NCBI GenBank assembly: GCA_963754085.1
Contig: CAVWFA010000016.1
Span: forward strand, 451,213-515,212
DNA from: Candidatus Aminicenantes bacterium
Lineage (GTDB): Bacteria; Acidobacteriota; Aminicenantia; Aminicenantales; Saccharicenantaceae
Length of the DNA stretch: 64,000 nucleotides
Reading direction: 5' to 3'
Made by a program: the position numbers and the translations under genes. This document shows, one piece after another, positions 34,550-53,135 of this stretch (its first letter is position 1; each line of letters starts with the position of its first letter). The notes beneath the pieces were generated by a model. That model did not search any database. It saw nothing but the letters and a program-made list of their open reading frames with translations, and was not told the DNA's origin.

Positions 34550-35013
34550 AGATCGTGCTGCAGCGGGTGAAAGAGGCCCGGGTCGAGGTCGAGGGCGTGA
34601 CGGCCGGCCGTATCGGCCGCGGCCTGTGCCTGCTCGTCGGCGTCGAGAAGGGCGACGGGGAGGCGGACGCGGAATACCTGGCCCGCAAGTGCGTCGAGCT
34701 GCGCATCTTCCCGGACGCCGAGGGCAAGATGAACCTCTCGCTGGCCGAGGCCGGCGGCGAGGTGCTGGCCGTGTCCCAATTCACGCTGGCCGGCTCGGTG
34801 CGCAAGGGCCGCCGGCCGAGCTTCGACGGCGCCGAGGCGCCGGCCCGGGCGGCCGAGCTGTTCGAGTCCTTCGTCGGCGCCGTCGAGGCGCTCGGCGTGA
34901 CCGTCGAGACGGGCGTCTTCCAGGCCCTCATGGAGGTCCACCTCGTCAACGACGGGCCGGTGACCTTCGTCCTCGGATCGAGGCCCGGGGCGGGCGGTCG
35001 GGACGAGGGGTGA
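34546..35013 (+). CDS. dtd: D-aminoacyl-tRNA deacylase
   Basis: [15 protein letters not shown]...SQFTLAG...RRPSF...NDGPVTF. It has an ATGA overlap with murJ. Confidence 0.9.
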
Positions 35014-35166
35014 GACCGGACCCCTTTTCTCACCTCTCGCGAGGAGGGTCGGGCCCTAAAAATCACCCCCCGATTCCCCGGACCGGGCCATGCCCGGCCC
35101 CCGGTCCTGCCGTAAGATCGGCCTGGACGACCGCGTGAGAACCGGTCTGCCCGCAGTGAGAGACGT

Positions 35167-37149
35167 ATGCCCATGAGCCGCTTCATCGCCAGACGGAAGG
35201 TCGAGAGCCTGCCCCGGATCCCTCTGCGCGGGACGATCGACCTGACCTACCGGTGCGGCAACGACTGCCGCCACTGTTGGCTTCGGCTCGCGCCGGATGC
35301 GGCCGAGCGCGCGGCCGAGCTGACGTCCGGCGAGATCCGCCGCGTCGTCGACGAGGCCCGGAAGCGGGGCTGCCGGGAATGGGCCATCTCCGGCGGCGAA
35401 CCCATGCTCCGCCCGGACTTCGCCGAGGTCTTTTCGGGGATCATCGAAAAGTCCTTCCGGTATACGCTGAACACGAACGGCACCCTGATCACCCCGGCCA
35501 TCGCCCGCCTGCTGAGGCGGCCGGGCGCCAAGCTCGTCGCGCTCTACGGCGCCACCTCAGCGGTCCACGACGCGGTCACGCGCCAGCCGGGCTCGTTCGC
35601 GGCCCTCGAGCGGGGCGTTGCCTATCTCCGGGAAGCGGGGGCGGCTTTCACGGTCCAGGTCGTTCCCATGCGGACCAACATCGCCGATTACGAAGCCATG
35701 GTCCGTCTGGCGGGATCGTGGAGCCCGAGCTGGCGGGTGGGCGCCACCTGGCTCTATCTCTCGGCCTCCGGCGACCCGCGGCGCAACCGCGATATCCGGG
35801 CCGAGCGCCTGGACCCGGCCCGGGTGGCCGAGCTCGATCAGGTCTTTGCCGGAGGCGCCGGCGATCCGGACAGGGACGCCGCGATCGCGTGCGCCGCCGC
35901 GCGCGCCGTGACCGAAGGGCTCTATGCGGCCTGCCTGGCCGGCCGGCGCGATTTCCACATCGATCCGTACGGCGGCCTGAGCTTCTGCTCGTTCGTCAAA
36001 GACCCCGCCCTGCGCCTCGACTTGAGATCGATGAGCTTCGCCGAGGCTTGGGAAGAGCGCCTGCCGCGGCTGGCGGAGGCCGTCAGGCCGTCCGCGGCCT
36101 ACGGCGACGGATGCGGGACCTGCGACCTGAGGGCCGACTGCAAGTGGTGCCCGGTCTACGCCTATCTCGAGCACCGGGACCACTCGGCGAAGATCGAGGG
36201 GCTCTGCGCGATCGCCCGGGAAACGCGCCGGGCCCGGACGGAATGGCTCGGCGCGCACCGCCGCCGCTTCGGCATCGCCGGCCTCGCGGTCGACGTCGAG
36301 TCCGACCTGCCGATCACCGACGGGACGTTCGACCCCAAGTTCGAGCCCTTTCGGGTCCCGGCCGACGGGCCGGCCGATATCGTCCTCCGCCATCACTTCT
36401 CCCTGCCCGACCTCGACGCCTTCGACCTGGGCCGGGAGGTCTACCGCCGGGCGCCCTGGGCGATCTTCCGCAAAGACTCGTCCTGGATCTACGTCATGAT
36501 CTCCCCCGATCCGTCCGACGCGACGGTCCACCGCGTCATGGTCTTCGACGACGGGCACACCCGGGGCCGCATCTACAGCCCGTCGGACGGCTTCTTCCGA
36601 TCCGGCGGCCTCGATTCGCTGGCTCTGCTGCCCTCGGACCAGCTCGTCCTGGCCCGGGCCCTGCCGGCCTTCGGCGGCCTCTATGTGCATGCGGCGGGGG
36701 TGGACATGGGCGGGCACGGCCTCGTGTTCGCGGGCCCGTCGGAAGCCGGCAAATCGACCATGGTCAAGCTCATCGGGGACCGGGGCCGGGTCCTCTGCGA
36801 CGACCGGGTCATCGTCCGCAAGAGCGCCGGGGGGGTCCGCGTCCACGGGACCTGGAACCACGGCGAGATCCCGCGCGTGTCGCCGGCTTCGGCGCCCGTG
36901 CGCGCGGTCTTCTTCCTTCGACAGGCGAAGACGAACCGCCTCGACCGCGTCGAGGATCCCCGGGCCGTGCTGGCCGATCTCCTGCCCCGCCTGGTCCGGC
37001 CGCTGGTCTCGTCCGACTGGTGGGAGCGGGCCCTGGCCCTGGCCGCCGAGATCGTCCGCGACGTGCCGTTCTACGACCTGTCCTTCGACCGGAGCGGGGA
37101 CATCGTCCGCGTCCTCGAGGAATTCCTGGGCCAGGCGGACGGGCCATGA
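35167..37149 (+). CDS. radical SAM/SPASM peptide-maturase-like enzyme fused to a C-terminal HPr-kinase-related P-loop domain
   Basis: 660 aa. The radical SAM motif is CGNDCRHC, followed by SGGEPMLRPD. The SPASM Cys cluster is CGTCDLRADCKWCPVYAYLE. From about residue 380 the sequence reads YVHAAGVDMGGHGLVFAGPSEAGKSTMVKLIGDRGRVLCDDRVIV (P-loop at nt 36733-36759). Confidence 0.85.
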   Translation: MPMSRFIARRKVESLPRIPLRGTIDLTYRCGNDCRHCWLRLAPDAAERAAELTSGEIRRVVDEARKRGCREWAISGGEPMLRPDFAEVFSGIIEKSFRYTLNTNGTLITPAIARLLRRPGAKLVALYGATSAVHDAVTRQPGSFAALERGVAYLREAGAAFTVQVVPMRTNIADYEAMVRLAGSWSPSWRVGATWLYLSASGDPRRNRDIRAERLDPARVAELDQVFAGGAGDPDRDAAIACAAARAVTEGLYAACLAGRRDFHIDPYGGLSFCSFVKDPALRLDLRSMSFAEAWEERLPRLAEAVRPSAAYGDGCGTCDLRADCKWCPVYAYLEHRDHSAKIEGLCAIARETRRARTEWLGAHRRRFGIAGLAVDVESDLPITDGTFDPKFEPFRVPADGPADIVLRHHFSLPDLDAFDLGREVYRRAPWAIFRKDSSWIYVMISPDPSDATVHRVMVFDDGHTRGRIYSPSDGFFRSGGLDSLALLPSDQLVLARALPAFGGLYVHAAGVDMGGHGLVFAGPSEAGKSTMVKLIGDRGRVLCDDRVIVRKSAGGVRVHGTWNHGEIPRVSPASAPVRAVFFLRQAKTNRLDRVEDPRAVLADLLPRLVRPLVSSDWWERALALAAEIVRDVPFYDLSFDRSGDIVRVLEEFLGQADGP

Positions 37150-38324
37150 CCGCCAAGAGCTTCGTCCGGAAGGTCCCCTCGGGGACGTCCGGCCTGTGGC
37201 GCACGGCGGCCCCGAAGCTCGCCCGGCTGGACATCGAGCTGACCGAACGGTGCAACTGCGCCTGCCTGCACTGTTCGGTCGCCCGGCCGGCCGGAGATGC
37301 CGAGGCCAAGGCCCGGGAGTGGCCCGCGGAACGGTGGACGGCCCTCCTCGACGAGGCCGCCGGACTGGGCTGTCTCGTCGTCCGGCTGACCGGCGGCGAA
37401 CCGCTTCTGCGGAGCGACTTCGAGGAGATCTACCTCCACGCGCGAAAGCTCGGCTTGAGGGTGATGCTCTTCACCAACGCCACGCTCGTCACGCCGCGCC
37501 TGGCCCGCCTCCTCAGGGACGTCCCGCCGCTCGAGGCGGTCGAGATCTCGATCTACGGGATGACCCGGGAGTCGGGCGAGGCCGTGACGCGCGCTCCGGG
37601 CTCGTTCGCGGCCGCGCGCCGCGGGCTCGGTCTTCTGGCCGAGAGCGGCGTCCCCTTCGTCGTCAAGGGCGCCGTCCTGCCGCCGACGCGCGGCGAGGCG
37701 GACGAATTCGAAGCCTGGGCGGCCGGTCTCTCCGGAAACGCCGGCCCCGCCGCGTTCGCCGTGCTGTTCGACCTCCACTCGCGGCGCGACGCGGCGCGGA
37801 GCGCGGTCATCGCCGGATTGCGGTCCGGCGGCGACGAGTTCGTGCGCTTCTCCCGGCGTCACGGCGACGAAGCCGTCGGCGAATGGGGGGAATTCTGCGG
37901 CCGCCCCGGCGGGGCCCGCGGCGACCGTCTCTTCATCTGCCTGCCGGCGGCCGCCTCGGCCTCGGTCGATCCGTACGGCCGTCTGCAGTATTGCCTGGGC
38001 CTCCGCCATCCGGCGGCCCTCTACGACCTGGCCGCGGGATCGCTCCGCGAGGCCGTGACGGAGTTCCTGCCGCGGCTCCGGGAGACCCGGGCCGCGGACC
38101 CGGCCTATCTCGAACGCTGCGCCCGGTGCTTCCTCAGGGGCCTCTGCGCGCAATGCCCGGCGAAGTCGTGGGCCGAGCACGGGACCCTCGACTCGCCGGT
38201 CGAATACTTCTGCGGCGTCGCTCACGCCCAGGCGGTCGCCGCCGGCCTTCTGAAACCGGGGGAGAAGGCCTGGACCGTCCGCGACGGGGCCGAACGGGCG
38301 AAAATAAGGAGGAACGGATCATGA
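37146..38324 (+). CDS. radical SAM/SPASM domain protein (second)
   Basis: 392 aa with an ATGA overlap with the previous gene. Motifs are CNCACLHC, TGGEPLLRSD and CARCFLRGLCAQCPAKSWAEHG. It is part of track ORF 35253..38324. Confidence 0.85.
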   Translation: MTAKSFVRKVPSGTSGLWRTAAPKLARLDIELTERCNCACLHCSVARPAGDAEAKAREWPAERWTALLDEAAGLGCLVVRLTGGEPLLRSDFEEIYLHARKLGLRVMLFTNATLVTPRLARLLRDVPPLEAVEISIYGMTRESGEAVTRAPGSFAAARRGLGLLAESGVPFVVKGAVLPPTRGEADEFEAWAAGLSGNAGPAAFAVLFDLHSRRDAARSAVIAGLRSGGDEFVRFSRRHGDEAVGEWGEFCGRPGGARGDRLFICLPAAASASVDPYGRLQYCLGLRHPAALYDLAAGSLREAVTEFLPRLRETRAADPAYLERCARCFLRGLCAQCPAKSWAEHGTLDSPVEYFCGVAHAQAVAAGLLKPGEKAWTVRDGAERAKIRRNGS

Positions 38325-38626
38325 CGGGAAAGATCGAACTGGGCCGGGCCTACCGCCCTTCCGACGATGTCGTCGTGCGGGAGATCGAGGGCGAGATCGT
38401 CATCGTGCCCCTGACCTCCGGCATCGGGGACCTCGAGGACGAGCTGCTGACCCTCAACGAGACGGGGCGCGCGATCTGGGCGCGCCTCGACGGCTCGCGG
38501 CCGCTGGCCGCGGTCGTCGCGGAGCTCGAGTCGGAATACGAGGACGCGGAGGGGGAAGTCCCGGTCGACGTCGTCGGCTTCATGCAGGAGCTCTATGACC
38601 GGCGGATGATCGTGGAGAAGAGCTGA
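38321..38626 (+). CDS. PqqD-family peptide chaperone (RiPP recognition element)
   Basis: 101 aa with an ATGA overlap. YRPSDDVVVREIEGEIVIVPL...LLTLNETGRAIWARLDGSRPLAAVVAELESEY...DVVGFMQELYDRRMIV. Confidence 0.8.
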   Translation: MTGKIELGRAYRPSDDVVVREIEGEIVIVPLTSGIGDLEDELLTLNETGRAIWARLDGSRPLAAVVAELESEYEDAEGEVPVDVVGFMQELYDRRMIVEKS

Positions 38627-38631
38627 AGAGC

Positions 38632-39129
38632 ATGGACAAGCCGGCCGGCGCGCGCGTCGTTCCCGGAGGGGAGATCGCCCTCGACGGGAACGATCTCGCG
38701 GGCTTGATGCGGGCGGTCCTCGAAAAGGGGAGGGCCTTCCGCTTCGAAGCCCGGGGGGCGAGCATGCACCCGGTCATCCGCGACGGGGACATCGTCACCG
38801 TCCGGCCCCTGGCCGGCCGCGGAACGAGGACGGGCGACGTCGTCGCTTTCGTCCATCCCGTCACGGGCGGGGTCCGGATCCACCGGGTCGTCGGGGCCGG
38901 CGAGACGGGCTACCTGCTCAAGGGCGATAACGCCCTCTGCGAGGACGGCGCCGTCGCTCGGGACGCCGTGCTGGGGCGGGTCGCGCGGATCGAGCGCGAG
39001 GGGCGGACCGTCCTCCTCGGACCGGCCCTCCGCTCCTCTCTCATCGCCCGGCTGTCGAGGACCGCCTGGTTCACCCGTCTCGCCCGGCGCCTCCGCCGGA
39101 CGCTCGGCCGCAGCGACAGGAGGACATGA
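38632..39129 (+). CDS. S26-family (Sec11/SipW-like) signal-peptidase-type serine protease
   Basis: 165 aa. The Ser motif is GASMHPVIRDGDIVTV and the Lys motif is YLLKGDNALCEDG. The C-terminal tail is basic and amphipathic. Confidence 0.7.
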   Translation: MDKPAGARVVPGGEIALDGNDLAGLMRAVLEKGRAFRFEARGASMHPVIRDGDIVTVRPLAGRGTRTGDVVAFVHPVTGGVRIHRVVGAGETGYLLKGDNALCEDGAVARDAVLGRVARIEREGRTVLLGPALRSSLIARLSRTAWFTRLARRLRRTLGRSDRRT

Positions 39130-39130
39130 G

Positions 39131-40258
39131 ATGGCCAAGGGATTCGTCGTCCGGCGGCCGCTTCCCGAGTTCGGCCTGTGGGAGAAGATGGCGGACGGCC
39201 GGGCCGTCTTCAGCTTCGACCTCGAAGCGACGGCCCGCTGCAACCTCGATTGCCGGCATTGCTACATCAACCGGCCGGCCGGCGACCGGGCGGCCCGGAA
39301 GCGCGAGCTCGGCGTCGACGAGATCGGCCGCATCGGCGCCGAGGCGGCGGCGCTGGGCGCCGTCTGGTGCCTCCTCACCGGCGGCGAGCCGCTTCTCCGG
39401 CCGGACTTCTTCGATCTCTACCAGGCCCTGCTCAGCAAGGGGCTGCTCATCTCCCTCTTCACCAACGCCACGCTCGTCAGCGACGAGCACGTCCGGTTCT
39501 TCAGGAAGTTCCCGCCGCGGGACATCGAGGTGACCGTCTACGGGGTGACCCGGGAGACCTACGAGCGGGTGACGCGCACGCCCGGGTCCTTCGACGCCTT
39601 CATGCGGGGGCTCGACCGGCTCCTCGCCGGGGGCATCACCGTCCGGCTCAAGGCCATGGCTTTGCGCTCGAACAAACACGAGCTCCCGGCCATCGGGGAT
39701 TTCTGCCGGGCCCGGACCAAGGACTACTACCGTTTCGACCCCCAGCTGCATCTCCGCTTCGACCGCGACGAGTCCCGGAACACCCTGATCCGGGCCGAGC
39801 GGCTCAGCCCCCGGGAGGTCGTCCGGCTGGAGCGGGCCGATCCCGAGCGCTTCGGGGCCCTGGAGGCCGCCTGCGACGAGATCCTTCCGGCCCCGGCCGC
39901 CGAAGGGGCGGGCGTCCCCGTATGCCGCCACATCTTCCGCTGCGGCGTCGGTCAGAGGAGCTTCGTCGTCGGGCCCGAGGGCCATCTGCGGCCGTGCCTG
40001 TCGCTGAGCCATCCGGATTTCCTCTACGACCTCAGGAAAGGCAGTCTGGCCGGCGCCTGGACCGGATTCCTGCCGAAGGTGCTGCGGCGGGAGTCCGACA
40101 GGCGGGAATACCTGGAGAAGTGCGGGCGGTGCCCGATCGTCAACTTGTGCCTCTGGTGCCCGGCCCACGCCTATCTGGAGACCGGGGAGCTCGATCTGCC
40201 GGTCGAGGACTTCTGCCGGGTGGCGGAAGCCCGGGCGGAGGGCCTAAAATCCGGTTGA
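39131..40258 (+). CDS. radical SAM/SPASM domain protein (third)
   Basis: 375 aa, starting 1 nt after the peptidase stop. Motifs are CNLDCRHC, TGGEPLLRPD and CGRCPIVNLCLWCPAHAYLE. Confidence 0.85.
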   Translation: MAKGFVVRRPLPEFGLWEKMADGRAVFSFDLEATARCNLDCRHCYINRPAGDRAARKRELGVDEIGRIGAEAAALGAVWCLLTGGEPLLRPDFFDLYQALLSKGLLISLFTNATLVSDEHVRFFRKFPPRDIEVTVYGVTRETYERVTRTPGSFDAFMRGLDRLLAGGITVRLKAMALRSNKHELPAIGDFCRARTKDYYRFDPQLHLRFDRDESRNTLIRAERLSPREVVRLERADPERFGALEAACDEILPAPAAEGAGVPVCRHIFRCGVGQRSFVVGPEGHLRPCLSLSHPDFLYDLRKGSLAGAWTGFLPKVLRRESDRREYLEKCGRCPIVNLCLWCPAHAYLETGELDLPVEDFCRVAEARAEGLKSG

Positions 40259-40283
40259 CTTTGCCGTTCGTTCGACTTAATAT
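40255..40283 (+). promoter_or_regulatory. putative sigma-70 promoter dedicated to the small Cys-rich ORF
   Basis: TTGACT-N17-TAATAT. The -35 overlaps the stop of the third rSAM gene. This is an AT-rich island in otherwise GC-rich DNA. GGAGGA lies 10 nt before the ATG at 40319. Confidence 0.55.
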
Positions 40284-40318
40284 ATTGTTAAGGAAGCGTT
40301 TATGGAGGATCTGAGGCC

Positions 40319-40501
40319 ATGAAAAAGAAGTGGCGAACGCCCGAGCTCATCGTTCTCTTCAAGGGGCGTCCGGAGGAGACCCTGCTGTGCCATTGCAAGC
40401 ACACGACGGCCCCGCCCGTGGCGCCCTATAACCACAAGGACAACTGCACGTCGAACCCCGTCTGTTGTTCGGCGTGCGTCGATATCCAGTACGCTTCCTG
40501 A
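40319..40501 (+). CDS. candidate RiPP precursor peptide (60 aa, 6 Cys)
   Basis: MKKKWRTPELIVLFKGRPEETLLCHCKHTTAPPVAPYNHKDNCTSNPVCCSACVDIQYAS. It has a strong SD and its own promoter, and sits immediately 3' of the rSAM/PqqD/peptidase operon. Cys residues are at positions 24, 26, 43, 49, 50 and 53. Confidence 0.65.
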   Translation: MKKKWRTPELIVLFKGRPEETLLCHCKHTTAPPVAPYNHKDNCTSNPVCCSACVDIQYAS

Positions 40502-40527
40502 CCGGGCGCCTGTCCCGGACCCGGGCA

Positions 40528-41043
40528 TCAGGTGATGCGGACCCCGCTCGTCTTCTCGATGGCCTCCTCGGCCGCCGCCCGGACATAGGGACTGGGGTCC
40601 TTTTTCAGCCGGACGAGGAGCCGGACGGCTTCCTCGCCGCCGATCTCGCCCAGCGCTTCCGCCGCCGCCCGCCGGACGTCGACGTTCGTGTCGCCGGCCG
40701 CCGCGCCGATCCCCGGCAGGGCTTCGCGAAGCCGCCGGAGCCCGATGACCGACAGGGCCGAGCTCCGGGCGTACCAAGGCGGCTGACGGAGGCGCCGGAC
40801 GGCCCAGTCGGCCCGCAGCGCCGGCCGCCCGCAGAGCCCCCGGACGACGAGCGCCCGGACGGCCTCGTTGGGATCGGCCAGCATCTCCCAGAGGAGCTCC
40901 TCGACCCAGGCCAGGCGGACCTTGACGCAGGCGGAGATGATCCGCTGTCTTTTTGTCTTGTCCGGGGTCAGGCCGAGCTTGAAGACAAAGGCCCGGCAAA
41001 CGGGGGAGAGGCTCGACTCGTCAGGGGGGCGGTGTTCGTCCAT
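40528..41043 (-). CDS. HEAT-repeat (PBS-lyase-like) protein
   Basis: 171 aa starting at MDEHRPPDES. Repeats include DPNEAVRALVVRGL, DTNVDVRRAAAEALGEIG and DPSPYVRAAAEEAI. It is the C-terminal part of track ORF 40528..42312. Confidence 0.6.
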   Translation of the reverse strand: MDEHRPPDESSLSPVCRAFVFKLGLTPDKTKRQRIISACVKVRLAWVEELLWEMLADPNEAVRALVVRGLCGRPALRADWAVRRLRQPPWYARSSALSVIGLRRLREALPGIGAAAGDTNVDVRRAAAEALGEIGGEEAVRLLVRLKKDPSPYVRAAAEEAIEKTSGVRIT

Positions 41044-51233: not shown

Positions 51234-51704
51234 ATGAAGCTGCACGCGCTCCTCGACGACGGCCTGGTCCTGCCGCGCCTGGAAGCCCGCGACCGGACGG
51301 GCGTTCTCCGCGAGATGGCGGCCCGGCTGGAGGCCCGGCACGCGCCCGACCTCGACGACACGCTCCTCGACAAGCTCCTGAAGAGGGAGGAGCTGGGCAC
51401 CACGGCGATCGGCAAGGGGGTGGCCGTGCCCCACTGCCGGGCCAAGGGCCTCAAGGCCCCGGCCCTTCTGCTCGGCCTCTCGCCGGATGGGGTCGCCTTC
51501 GATGCGGTGGACGGCAAGCCCTCCCACGTCTTCTTCCTCCTGGTCTCGCCCGAGGACAATCCGGGCGCCGGGCTCCGGCTGCTGGCGGCGATCGCCGGCC
51601 TCGTCCGGAGGTCGCGGGGCCTCTCGTCGAAGCTGATCAAGGCGCCGACGCCGGAGGCCATCATCGGCGTCCTCCGGGCCGAGGAGGAGAAGCCGCGTGC
51701 CTGA
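51234..51704 (+). CDS. ptsN: PTS EIIA-Ntr nitrogen regulatory protein
   Basis: 156 aa with GTTAIGKGVAVPHCR (active-site His). Confidence 0.85.
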   Translation: MKLHALLDDGLVLPRLEARDRTGVLREMAARLEARHAPDLDDTLLDKLLKREELGTTAIGKGVAVPHCRAKGLKAPALLLGLSPDGVAFDAVDGKPSHVFFLLVSPEDNPGAGLRLLAAIAGLVRRSRGLSSKLIKAPTPEAIIGVLRAEEEKPRA

Positions 51705-52257
51705 CGGACCGGCCGGCGCGCCCCCGGGATCGCCGGATCAGACGACCCTCTCGGCCGGTTTCCTGAGGATCTTCGGCCTGGGGACCCTCATCCTCGGCGA
51801 CAGCGGCATCGGCAAGAGCGAGAGCGCGCTCGAGCTCATCTCCCGCGGCCACCGGTTCATCGCCGACGACGTCGTCCAGATCCGGGTCGGCCCGAAGGGC
51901 GAACTCGTCGGGACGGCCCCGGCCCTGAGCCGCAACTTCATGGAGATCCGGGGCCTCGGCATCATCAACATCCGGGCCATTTTCGGACCGAAGCTGCTGG
52001 CCCGGGAAGCCCGGGTCGACCTGGTGATCCGCTTGAAGAAGTGGCGGCGCGGCTACGAGGTCGACCGTCTCGGGCTCAAGTCCGGGGACGACATGACCGT
52101 GCTGGGCCGCAAGATCCCCCAGCTGGCCATTCCCGTCGCCCCGGGCCGGAACATCGCCACGCTGATCGAGATCGCCTGCAAGGTCCACATCCTCCGCAAG
52201 AAGGGCTACAGCGCGCCGGACGAGATCATCCGCCGGCTCGACCGCGTCCTGACATGA
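51697..52257 (+). CDS. hprK: HPr kinase/phosphorylase, short form (catalytic domain only)
   Basis: 186 aa (GTG start) with GTLILGDSGIGKSESALELISRGHRFIADDVV and EIRGLGIINI. Confidence 0.85.
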   Translation: MPDGPAGAPPGSPDQTTLSAGFLRIFGLGTLILGDSGIGKSESALELISRGHRFIADDVVQIRVGPKGELVGTAPALSRNFMEIRGLGIINIRAIFGPKLLAREARVDLVIRLKKWRRGYEVDRLGLKSGDDMTVLGRKIPQLAIPVAPGRNIATLIEIACKVHILRKKGYSAPDEIIRRLDRVLT

Positions 52258-53135
52258 GAGCTGCCATGACCCGCTCCGCCAAGGACTGCCGCTTCCTCAT
52301 CGTCACCGGCCTGTCGGGCTCGGGCAAGTCCGTGGTCAGCCGGGCCCTCGAGGACTTCGGCTATTACTGCATGGACAACCTGCCGGCCAAGCTCATCCCG
52401 GATTTCGTCGATCTCTGGCTCCGCGAGGAAGTCGAGATCGACCGGGCGGCCCTGGTCATCGACATCCGCGAGCCGCGCTTCCTCGCCGACTTCCCGGGGG
52501 TCTTGCGGGAGATCCGCCGGAAGGTCCCGGCGCGGCTCATCTTCCTCGAAGCGGCGGACGAGTCCCTGGCCAAGCGCTTCAACGAGACGCGGCGGCCGCA
52601 CCCGATGGCCCCGCGCAAGCCCATCCTCGAGGGGGTCCGGCTCGAGCGCAAGAGGCTCCTGGCCATCCGCCGGATGGCCGACGATGTCGTCGACACGTCG
52701 GGGCTCAACATCTACCAGCTCAAGGACATCATCGCCGAGCGCATCCTGCGGCGGAAGCGGCCGCGGACCCAGGTCGTTTTGACGAGCTTCGGCTACAAGC
52801 ACGGCCTGCCCCTCGAATCCGACCTCGTCTTCGACACGCGGCTCCTGCCGAACCCGTTCTATGTCGAGCGGCTGAGGACGCGGACCGGCAAGACGCCGAG
52901 CGTCCGCAAGTTCGTCCTGTCCTCGCCCGGGACGCGGCCGTTCCTGAAGGAGCTTTTCCGGTTCGTCGACTTCGCCCTGCCCCGCTTCGCCCGGGAGGGG
53001 AAAACGACCGTGGCCGTCGCCGTGGGCTGCACCGGGGGCAAGCACCGCTCGGTGGTCGTCGCCGAGGAGCTGCGGGCCCATCTCAAAACGGCGGGCGCGG
53101 ACGTCAGGATCTTTCATCGGGACCTTTATAAATAG
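52254..53135 (+). CDS. rapZ: RNase adapter protein RapZ
   Basis: LIVTGLSGSGKSVVSRALEDFGYYCMDNLP and GCTGGKHRSV. It has an ATGA overlap with hprK; an alternative ATG lies at 52266. Confidence 0.9.
   Translation: MRAAMTRSAKDCRFLIVTGLSGSGKSVVSRALEDFGYYCMDNLPAKLIPDFVDLWLREEVEIDRAALVIDIREPRFLADFPGVLREIRRKVPARLIFLEAADESLAKRFNETRRPHPMAPRKPILEGVRLERKRLLAIRRMADDVVDTSGLNIYQLKDIIAERILRRKRPRTQVVLTSFGYKHGLPLESDLVFDTRLLPNPFYVERLRTRTGKTPSVRKFVLSSPGTRPFLKELFRFVDFALPRFAREGKTTVAVAVGCTGGKHRSVVVAEELRAHLKTAGADVRIFHRDLYK

Follow-up and report, generated by a model that had tools for sequence, protein, structure and literature searches.

A radical SAM/SPASM enzyme fused to an ScmC-family kinase-fold domain in a candidate peptide-maturation cassette of an Aminicenantes bacterium

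Why does a radical S-adenosylmethionine (rSAM) enzyme in a peptide-maturation operon carry a kinase-like domain on the same polypeptide? The question is raised by a gene at positions 35167 to 37149 in a 64,000-nucleotide stretch of DNA, here called the window, from Candidatus Aminicenantes bacterium (assembly GCA_963754085.1, contig CAVWFA010000016.1, positions 451,213 to 515,212). The gene joins an rSAM/SPASM enzyme to a P-loop domain of the ScmC family, with the fold that is shared by HPr kinase (HprK) and phosphoenolpyruvate carboxykinase (PEPCK). It is the first of six tightly packed genes that encode, in order, the fusion protein (its rSAM half is called rSAM1), a second rSAM enzyme (rSAM2), a PqqD protein, a signal peptidase-like protein, a third rSAM enzyme (rSAM3) and a precursor peptide. 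The fusion is real. As to its function, on balance we favour a bifunctional maturase for peptides that are made on the ribosome and modified after translation (RiPPs), in which an rSAM/SPASM enzyme is combined with an ScmC-family kinase-fold domain that phosphorylates the C-terminal serine of the precursor. The features that bear on this reading are the following.

35167..37149, forward strand: fusion gene, rSAM/SPASM enzyme plus ScmC-family HprK/PEPCK-fold P-loop domain, in a single open reading frame (ORF)
35254..35277, forward strand: CxxxCxxC radical SAM cluster motif (C30, C34, C37), read in the sequence
35932..36207, forward strand: SPASM region with seven cysteines (C256, C274, C316, C319, C325, C328, C347), from alignment and fold
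36259..37146, forward strand: ScmC-family domain, amino acids (aa) ~365-660, with an N-lobe rich in beta-strands (aa ~365-485) and a C-lobe that holds the P-loop (aa ~490-657), from homology, the AlphaFold2 (AF2) model and Foldseek
36733..36759, forward strand: Walker A P-loop GPSEAGKST, aa 523-531, from alignment
36799..36804, forward strand: Asp545-Asp546 in LCDDR (LCDD is aa 543-546), counterpart of the HprK ADD and PEPCK kinase-2 motifs, from alignment
40319..40501, forward strand: precursor peptide of 60 aa; its leader is KKKWRTPELIVLFKGRPEETLL, and a C-H-C-K junction is followed by a Cys-rich core that ends in Ser, from homologues

The ORF listing gives the fusion gene 660 aa in one frame with no internal stops. 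Homologues begin with MSRF... and one that is 96% identical (P0121) has 658 aa, and for these reasons Met3 (35173) is the probable true start and the ATG listed at 35167 is probably not the real one. In its N-terminal half the protein is an rSAM/SPASM enzyme, with sites for three Fe-S clusters. The Pfam Radical_SAM family (PF04055) matches aa 26-181 with 67.7 bits against a cut-off of 29.5, which places the protein in the radical SAM superfamily; the CxxxCxxC motif lies within the fused frame of every complete fused locus. All seven cysteines of the SPASM region, the number expected for two auxiliary Fe-S clusters, are invariant among 56 homologues (alignment A2), with a spacing of Cx2Cx5Cx2C against the usual ...Cx3C. 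The Pfam SPASM hidden Markov model gave no match to the fusion protein at E<=0.01. In the full-length AF2 model the fold of the N-terminal half matches those of BlsE, PqqE, SkfB, SuiB, CteB and anSME. rSAM1 has no N-terminal RiPP recognition element (RRE) of its own.

The original prediction, made from the letters of the window, had a SPASM cluster (CGTCDLRADCKWCPVYAYLE, aa 316-335, 36112-36171) followed in the same ORF by a P-loop segment (YVHAAGVDMGGHGLVFAGPSEAGKSTMVKLIGDRGRVLCDDRVIV, aa 506-550, 36682-36816), and both were located as described. It had set the start of the second domain at 36304 (aa 380). The domain is present, but homology and the AF2 model put its onset about 15 residues earlier, near aa 365 (nt 36259), which is the point where free-standing homologues begin. 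The full-length model has a mean predicted local distance difference test (pLDDT) value of 86.5 and a predicted template modelling (pTM) score of 0.81. At the junction a helix (residues 344-364) continues straight into a strand (residues 365-370) with a pLDDT of about 90, and the junction of the two halves is modelled as rigid.

To which family does the C-terminal domain belong? When this region was scanned alone against Pfam and NCBIfam, all matches lay over the P-loop segment, and each was below its curated cut-off: NCBIfam ScmC, TIGR04249 (E 5e-15, 55.6 bits, cut-off 125), HprK_rel_B, TIGR04355 (E 1e-7, 31.2 bits, cut-off 200), HprK_rel_A, TIGR04352 (E 7e-4, 18.8 bits, cut-off 200), HprK, TIGR00679 (E 2e-3, 17.2 bits, cut-off 240) and Pfam Hpr_kinase_C (E 0.02, 14.7 bits, cut-off 33.3). 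AAA_29 was a further Pfam match below threshold. In the numbering of the fusion protein the ScmC and HprK-related matches fall at aa 502-597. The Pfam ScmC family (PF27840) is annotated on P0121 (96% identical), on P0143 (77%) and on all listed homologues of the domain, and its assignment to the window protein is taken from the precomputed annotation of these 77-96% identical homologues. As far as profiles can place it, the nearest named family is ScmC (PF27840), as a sister of NCBIfam ScmC and of the HprK-related kinases A and B. A sequence search of the PDB with the domain returned only HprK, with an E value of 0.74 that is not significant alone. The structural comparison was more informative. 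When the domain was modelled with AF2 from 99 sequences, the pLDDT was 93.6, and Foldseek aligned both lobes of the model with ATP-dependent PEPCKs (probability 1.00, E 3e-7) and also matched it to HprK/P structures 1kkl, 1jb1, 1knx and 2qmh (probability 1.00, E 5e-6, TMt at most 0.57, with 0.53-0.57 for 1kkl and 1jb1). HprK and PEPCK have one common P-loop fold. The domain has this PEPCK-like fold together with the Walker A and ADD motifs. The relationship to HprK that had been claimed for it is therefore correct at the level of the HprK/PEPCK superfamily, to which both profiles and Foldseek point and not to an unrelated P-loop family, but the nearest family is ScmC and not HprK proper.

The residues expected of a phosphotransferase are conserved. 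G523, G528, K529, S530 and T531 of Walker A are invariant in alignment A2, and Asp545-Asp546 is at least 90% conserved in alignments A1 and A2. Among the 99 homologues of the domain (domain numbering) D122, H139, G154, G159, K160, T162, R178, W194 and W249 are invariant, and S156, D176, D177, H196 and G197 are at least 90% conserved; the conserved His before Walker A is the His of YVHAAG. The window also contains a genuine HprK catalytic domain at 51697..52257 (Hpr_kinase_C, 181.9 bits), as had been recognised at the outset. The counterparts of GPSEAGKST and LCDD in this HprK are GDSGIGKSE and IADD, and the two motifs also align with HprK of L. casei, in which the second motif is ADDRV, and with kinases of the linear polyphosphorylated peptide (LPP) type. 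The pattern G-x-S-x-x-G-K-S does not vary among ScmC-like proteins, LPP-type kinases and the window HprK. The proposed parallel between the fused domain and the window HprK is limited to the P-loop and the Asp-Asp segment, because a whole-profile hhalign comparison of the domain family with the window HprK is weak (probability 26.5%, E 7e-4, 55 columns). The ScmC-family domain keeps the residues for nucleotide binding and phosphotransfer, and on this pattern of conservation it is likely to be catalytically active.

The fusion is widespread. A scan of one genome per GTDB species gave 80 loci, of which 39 are close relatives of the window locus, and in 26 of the 39 the CxxxCxxC motif, the SPASM region and the ScmC domain lie in a single open frame. 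Six phyla are represented among the fused loci, which belong to Aminicenantes, Acidobacteriota, Chloroflexota, Omnitrophota, Desulfobacterota, Methanoregula and Methanocella, the last with a complete chromosome. When the search was made with the full-length protein, it gave more than 115 clusters of full-length proteins (~650 aa, 59-96% identity) annotated with PF04055 and PF27840. Among the best 150 matches in a library clustered at 50% identity there were 17 full-length and 11 truncated fusions. In this library the ScmC-domain profile found 17,159 proteins at E<=1e-3, 6,515 at E<=1e-10 and 540 at E<=1e-30. All 29 rSAM1-class regions have an ScmC domain in frame after them, and an unfused rSAM1 was never found. 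Free ScmC-like genes of ~300 aa exist in other genomes, where the order is ScmC, rSAM2, PqqD, peptidase, rSAM3, and these loci have no rSAM1 orthologue; there is thus no adjacent gene pair available for merging, and a merger of two neighbouring genes was rejected on this ground. A more distant Acidobacteriota clade has one rSAM only. Because the same single frame recurs across phyla and in more than 115 full-length clusters, the fusion is genuine, evolutionarily fixed and under selection, and an assembly artefact is excluded. For the original prediction, which had called for a check of the junction and a survey of domain architectures and had supposed the fusion to be undescribed, the outcome is divided. 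No publication on it was found: the literature search, with subscription-only papers outside its coverage, returned nothing on an rSAM-HprK-type fusion, on ScmC or on the SCM cassette, and ScmC-family proteins appear uncharacterised so far. However, the Radical_SAM plus ScmC architecture is already catalogued in Pfam and abundant, and so it is neither rare nor unique to the window. In the source annotation the fused homologues are named only 'radical SAM protein'.

Several variants of the fusion and its loci were observed. In P0109 (422 aa, on a 275-kb NCBI contig) a complete ScmC-like domain comes first and is followed by an rSAM fragment without the CxxxCxxC N-terminus; this may be a fusion in reverse order, or the product of a deletion that brought ScmC together with the downstream rSAM2. 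One contig (L007, 900-11200) has two divergent fused cassettes, which enclose three different precursor genes (6033, 6765, 7165), and looks like a duplicated, diversifying locus. In two metagenome-assembled genomes labelled Thermoleophilia and Actinomycetes (L039, 9000-14000; L041, 8600-15700) the matches to rSAM2 and ScmC are split between frames, and these cassettes appear decayed. Another Aminicenantes genome (L012, 2700-6200) has a second, distant ScmC-like gene (31% identity) and two further rSAM genes, ~4 kb upstream of its main fused cassette. In the complete genome of Methanocella sp. MCL-LM (L021, 12800-14300) the peptidase and rSAM3 are separated by two precursor genes, in tandem and on the opposite strand. 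The organism may be in culture, and if so it would be a possible experimental entry point.

What does the precursor say about the substrate? No Pfam or NCBIfam peptide model matches the window precursor, which ends in ...QYAS. A search by leader motif, with the C-terminus left unconstrained, found 49 precursors from 46 loci, those of L040 (9731) and L021 (14039, minus strand) among them. They have the consensus K-K-x-W/Y-x-x-P-x-L-x-V-L-x-R-x-x-P-E-E-A-V-L-x-x-C-K followed by a variable core. The last residue is Ser in 48 of the 49 and Thr in the other, and the terminal Ser is the only conserved hydroxyl residue. The window precursor therefore has a C-terminal Ser of the kind phosphorylated in lasso peptide pathways. 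In 47/49 precursors the distance of the last Cys from the C-terminus is 5-8 residues: 5 residues in the one-rSAM, mostly Acidobacteriota clade and 6-8 elsewhere, the exceptions being L034 (11 residues) and the Cys-less core of L041. Three or more core cysteines, ending in Cx2-3C at 6-8 residues from the C-terminus, occur in 20 of 21 precursors at fused loci, and at unfused loci 24 of 27 have two. The lone fused exception is the fragmented locus L041, whose precursor-like ORF has no core Cys at all. An assignment of one Cys to each rSAM was considered and rejected; one-rSAM and two-rSAM variants alike have the C-K cysteine plus two core cysteines.

The other features of the operon are as follows.

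37146..38324, forward strand: second rSAM/SPASM maturase (rSAM2), 392 aa, Radical_SAM 72.1 bits
38321..38626, forward strand: PqqD-family RRE, 101 aa, Pfam PqqD 51.8 bits
38632..39129, forward strand: protein resembling signal peptidase I (SpI) of the archaeal type (S24/S26), putative leader peptidase, 165 aa, Peptidase_S24 32.2 bits
39131..40258, forward strand: third rSAM/SPASM maturase (rSAM3), 375 aa, Radical_SAM 75.1 bits and a weak SPASM match
40255..40283, forward strand: promoter-like site TTGACT-17-TAATAT before the precursor gene, a sigma-70 consensus match only

The start codon of rSAM2 overlaps the stop of the fusion gene (ATGA), and the PqqD start overlaps the rSAM2 stop in the same way. 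rSAM1 is ~33% identical to rSAM2 and rSAM3, and rSAM2 and rSAM3 are 39% identical to each other. The gene order of the whole cassette is conserved and is identical in a 77%-identical Aminicenantes relative; rSAM2 is syntenic in nearly all loci, and rSAM3 has an orthologue in one-, two- and three-rSAM loci and is the rSAM of every cassette variant. The best match of its type for the putative leader peptidase is TIGR02228, sigpep_I_arch (E 4e-11, under its cut-off). The promoter-like site is the sole sigma-70-like match in 34900-40800 (5.9 kb), where 0.1 would be expected; it lies in an AT-rich spacer (40255-40318) within a region of ~70% GC, and GGAGGA is found 8 nt upstream of the precursor ATG. 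This suggests that the precursor may have its own promoter besides operon read-through. A GC-rich inverted repeat lies past the precursor stop codon (about 40502-40525). Upstream of the cassette lies dtd, and HEAT and ribBA genes follow it downstream. Among the six genes and these flanks there is no nucleoside triphosphate (NTP)-transferase, MsbA-like exporter, lasso cyclase or B2 protein. Elsewhere in the window, the HprK at 51697-52257 (186 aa) consists of the C-terminal catalytic domain only, and the order ptsN (EIIA-Ntr type), hprK, rapZ at 51234-53135 is that of a regulatory cluster of the nitrogen phosphotransferase system type and not of the Firmicute CcpA-type context.

How might the two halves work together? 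The HprK fold has been recruited as a peptide kinase in RiPP pathways, as the original prediction stated (PMC8498205; PMC13381572). HprK homologues of lasso peptide pathways attach phosphate to the side chain of the Ser at the precursor's C-terminus and recognise little else; this Ser is all that their substrates have in common (PMC8498205). By analogy, the kinase-like domain of the fusion protein probably phosphorylates the invariant last Ser. From these comparisons we infer a kinase activity, its target residue, the rSAM chemistry and an order of steps. The W-x-x-P-x-L leader would first be bound by PqqD. The kinase-like domain would then grip the C-terminal Ser of the precursor and phosphorylate it with ATP, as the lasso HprK homologues do. 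The covalently attached rSAM would work on the adjacent C-terminal pair of cysteines, with thioether formation as the probable, putative chemistry, and the remaining cysteines would be modified by the other two rSAMs. Finally, the leader would be removed by the SpI-like peptidase in an RRE-dependent manner. We infer that both fused halves act on the same part of the substrate, because the extra Cys near the tail co-varies with the fusion. If so, crosslinking and phosphorylation may be coupled on one polypeptide, as had been proposed.

A number of observations count against a bifunctional maturase that phosphorylates the terminal Ser. The kinase activity is an extrapolation from relatives that are ~27% identical over one lobe, and the domain falls below every curated cut-off, those of HprK, NCBIfam ScmC and the HprK-related kinases A and B. 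Its top fold matches are PEPCKs, which are small-molecule kinases. The target position varies within the superfamily, since the LPP kinase LppK phosphorylates core Ser3 and not a C-terminal Ser. Lasso and LPP kinases are accompanied by an NTP-transferase and an exporter, and both are absent from the cassette. Other roles are conceivable for the invariant Ser, as a crosslink acceptor, a peptidase determinant or an export determinant. A neighbour-joining tree of the domain mixes fused with free forms without clear resolution, and the association of the fusion with the extra Cys (Fisher p = 6e-8) ignores the kinship of the loci.

One alternative is that the domain is mainly a substrate-docking module or an ATP-gated clamp, which presents the tail to the fused rSAM and complements PqqD, with the nucleotide having a regulatory role only. 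Such a role would accommodate an rSAM1 that has no RRE of its own and never occurs without the ScmC domain (29/29), a junction that is modelled as rigid, and a fusion that co-varies with the extra Cys near the C-terminus. It is possible but improbable: the Lys and Thr of Walker A, the preceding His and the Asp-Asp pair vary little or not at all, in fused proteins as well as in free-standing ones without an rSAM partner domain, and this fits catalysis better than binding alone.

It is also conceivable that the kinase is active but that phospho-Ser is a transient leaving group. In this scheme beta-elimination would give dehydroalanine, to which the upstream Cys would add to close a C-terminal ring of the lanthionine type. 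Class III and IV lanthipeptide synthetases follow such a kinase-then-lyase logic. The last Cys at 5-8 residues from the end in 47/49 precursors, the near-invariant terminal Ser and the conserved kinase motifs are what this scheme would require, and the beta-rich N-lobe (aa ~365-485) is free of any assigned role. However, Pfam and NCBIfam scans found no lyase-like or cyclase-like domain in the cassette, rSAM/SPASM enzymes already provide a route to Cys crosslinks, and the characterised HprK-fold RiPP kinases leave a stable mono- or polyphosphate. We consider this scheme unlikely.

The same low likelihood is given to a kinase that acts on another hydroxyl, such as that of a Ser or Thr close to the start of the core, perhaps adding several phosphates, with the C-terminal Ser conserved for other reasons. 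The precedent is LppK, which belongs to the module most similar in gene content and polyphosphorylates core Ser3, and many cores do have Ser or Thr soon after the C-K junction (e.g. HTT, TST, TSS). These positions are unconserved, and in several loci (L013, L031) the core lacks any Ser or Thr ahead of its first Cys, whereas a terminal Ser or Thr is present in 49/49 precursors.

A small-molecule kinase or phosphotransferase of the PEPCK type, with an indirect role in the pathway such as the supply of a cofactor or co-substrate, is very improbable. The best Foldseek matches over both lobes are indeed ATP-dependent PEPCKs, but the template modelling scores are low (TMq 0.34-0.42, root-mean-square deviation >9 A) and PEPCK and HprK share the fold. 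Moreover, in sequence the domain is directly homologous to the peptide kinases of LPP-type loci, and it co-occurs strictly with PqqD, leader peptidase and precursor in one-, two- and three-rSAM variants. Last, free-standing ~300-aa ScmC-like genes in other genomes would allow the single ORF to be an assembly or sequencing artefact, with a missed stop or frameshift joining two genes, but this is effectively refuted by the same in-frame fusion in independent assemblies of many phyla, including the complete Methanocella chromosome and 26 of the 39 close loci, and by the absence of an rSAM1 orthologue, and so of a pair to merge, from loci with a free ScmC gene.

The bifunctional maturase that phosphorylates the C-terminal Ser is thus the reading that we retain. 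A bolder version of it, which we put forward as doubtful, is that these cassettes form a new and widespread RiPP class, present in Aminicenantes, Acidobacteriota, Chloroflexota, Omnitrophota, Desulfobacterota and methanogenic archaea, in which a kinase-fold domain anchored on the C-terminal Ser acts in cis with the rSAM, and phospho-Ser is either a lasting handle or the leaving group that closes a ring with the Cys 5-8 residues upstream. If this is true, the combination of radical SAM and kinase logic would have no described precedent, and the fusion protein would be the first rSAM maturase to read the C-terminus of its substrate through a kinase domain, instead of or besides an RRE.

To our knowledge phosphorylation is rare in peptide natural products, and HprK-fold peptide kinases have so far been only free-standing, in lasso and LPP pathways. 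In the cassette described here a kinase/RRE/signal-peptidase module is combined with up to three rSAM crosslinking enzymes, and the kinase-like domain is welded to one of them. Such fusions are spread over hundreds of uncultured lineages and also occur in Methanocella, in one sequenced member at least. The terminal Ser, the fixed spacing of the last Cys and the fusion-linked extra Cys turn the label 'radical SAM protein' into a testable hypothesis on how the C-terminus of the substrate is read. The long-orphaned ScmC family gains a candidate precursor family, for the examined subset of loci, and a candidate function.

How do these cassettes compare with known systems? The closest in gene content are the LPP clusters of Bacillota (LppK, LppB and LppS; Nat Commun 2026, PMC13381572). 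Besides the HprK-like kinase LppK, their core comprises a discrete RRE, a signal peptidase of the archaeal type, an exporter and an NTP-transferase; LppK polyphosphorylates core Ser3, and the SpI-like peptidase cleaves the leader in an RRE-dependent manner (PMC13381572). The authors state that archaeal-type signal peptidases were previously undescribed in RiPP pathways, and radical SAM enzymes are unmentioned in the paper (PMC13381572). A putative LPP locus with exactly these genes was found here in Paenibacillus solanacearum (L073), together with a precursor that has the published leader motif YxxPxVLxHQxIxFETxxS. The window kinase-like domain is 27% identical to the L073 kinase over 143 aa (BLASTP, E 5e-11), which shows homology to the kinase of a verified cluster type, the window peptidase is 32% identical to the L073 SpI-like peptidase (E 2e-11) and the window PqqD is 27% identical to the L073 RRE (E 7e-7). 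On the basis of these 27-32% identities the window cassette shares a homologous kinase/RRE/peptidase module with the LPPs. It has the same trio of HprK-like kinase, discrete PqqD-type RRE and SpI-like peptidase, and in both systems the leader has an aromatic-x-x-P-x-L/V RRE-binding motif. The window cassette differs in its three rSAM/SPASM enzymes, of which one carries the kinase-like domain, in a core that is rich in Cys and ends in Ser, and in lacking the NTP-transferase and MsbA-like exporter, and the target of LppK is core Ser3. The taxa differ as well, with Bacillota for the LPPs and Aminicenantes, Acidobacteriota and methanogens here.

The lasso kinases (paeninodin PadeK, Zhu et al. 2016, reviewed in PMC8498205) have substrates with a common C-terminal Ser, as in the precursors found here. 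However, they are free-standing, and their clusters have a cyclase and B1/B2 proteins, whereas the window cassette has no lasso machinery. The SynChlorMet (SCM) cassette (ScmC TIGR04249, ScmD TIGR04248, ScmE TIGR04250, ScmF TIGR04251) resembles that of the window in having an HprK-related protein, a PqqD homologue and PqqE-like rSAM/SPASM enzymes, and ScmC is the best NCBIfam match of the fused domain. The window proteins score 55.6 against an equivalog cut-off of 125 for ScmC, 24.9 against 100 for ScmD, 76.6-88.6 against 400 for ScmE and 76.7-77.8 against 400 for ScmF. Because all scores are far under these cut-offs, the window cassette is a sister system of SCM; it also differs in that its ScmC is fused to an extra, third rSAM.

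HprK/P and the ATP-dependent PEPCKs share with the domain the fold, the Walker A sequence G-x-S-x-x-G-K-S/T and the Asp-Asp after a beta-strand. The window domain has a different N-lobe and scores below the cut-offs of the HprK family. From the context, HPr is unlikely to be its substrate, since the gene lies in a RiPP operon and the window has a separate HprK at 51697-52257. The rSAM/SPASM maturases PqqE, SkfB, CteB, SuiB and AlbA, as well as anSME, resemble the other half of the protein in the CxxxCxxC motif and the seven-Cys SPASM region, and the window enzyme stands alongside a PqqD-type RRE and a Cys-containing precursor. The matched solved structures (highest TMq 0.37) have no C-terminal kinase-fold domain, and many of them have an N-terminal RRE that is absent from the window protein. 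HprK-fold RiPP kinases and rSAM/SPASM maturases are each known, and a kinase-like domain fused to an rSAM enzyme is an addition to both.

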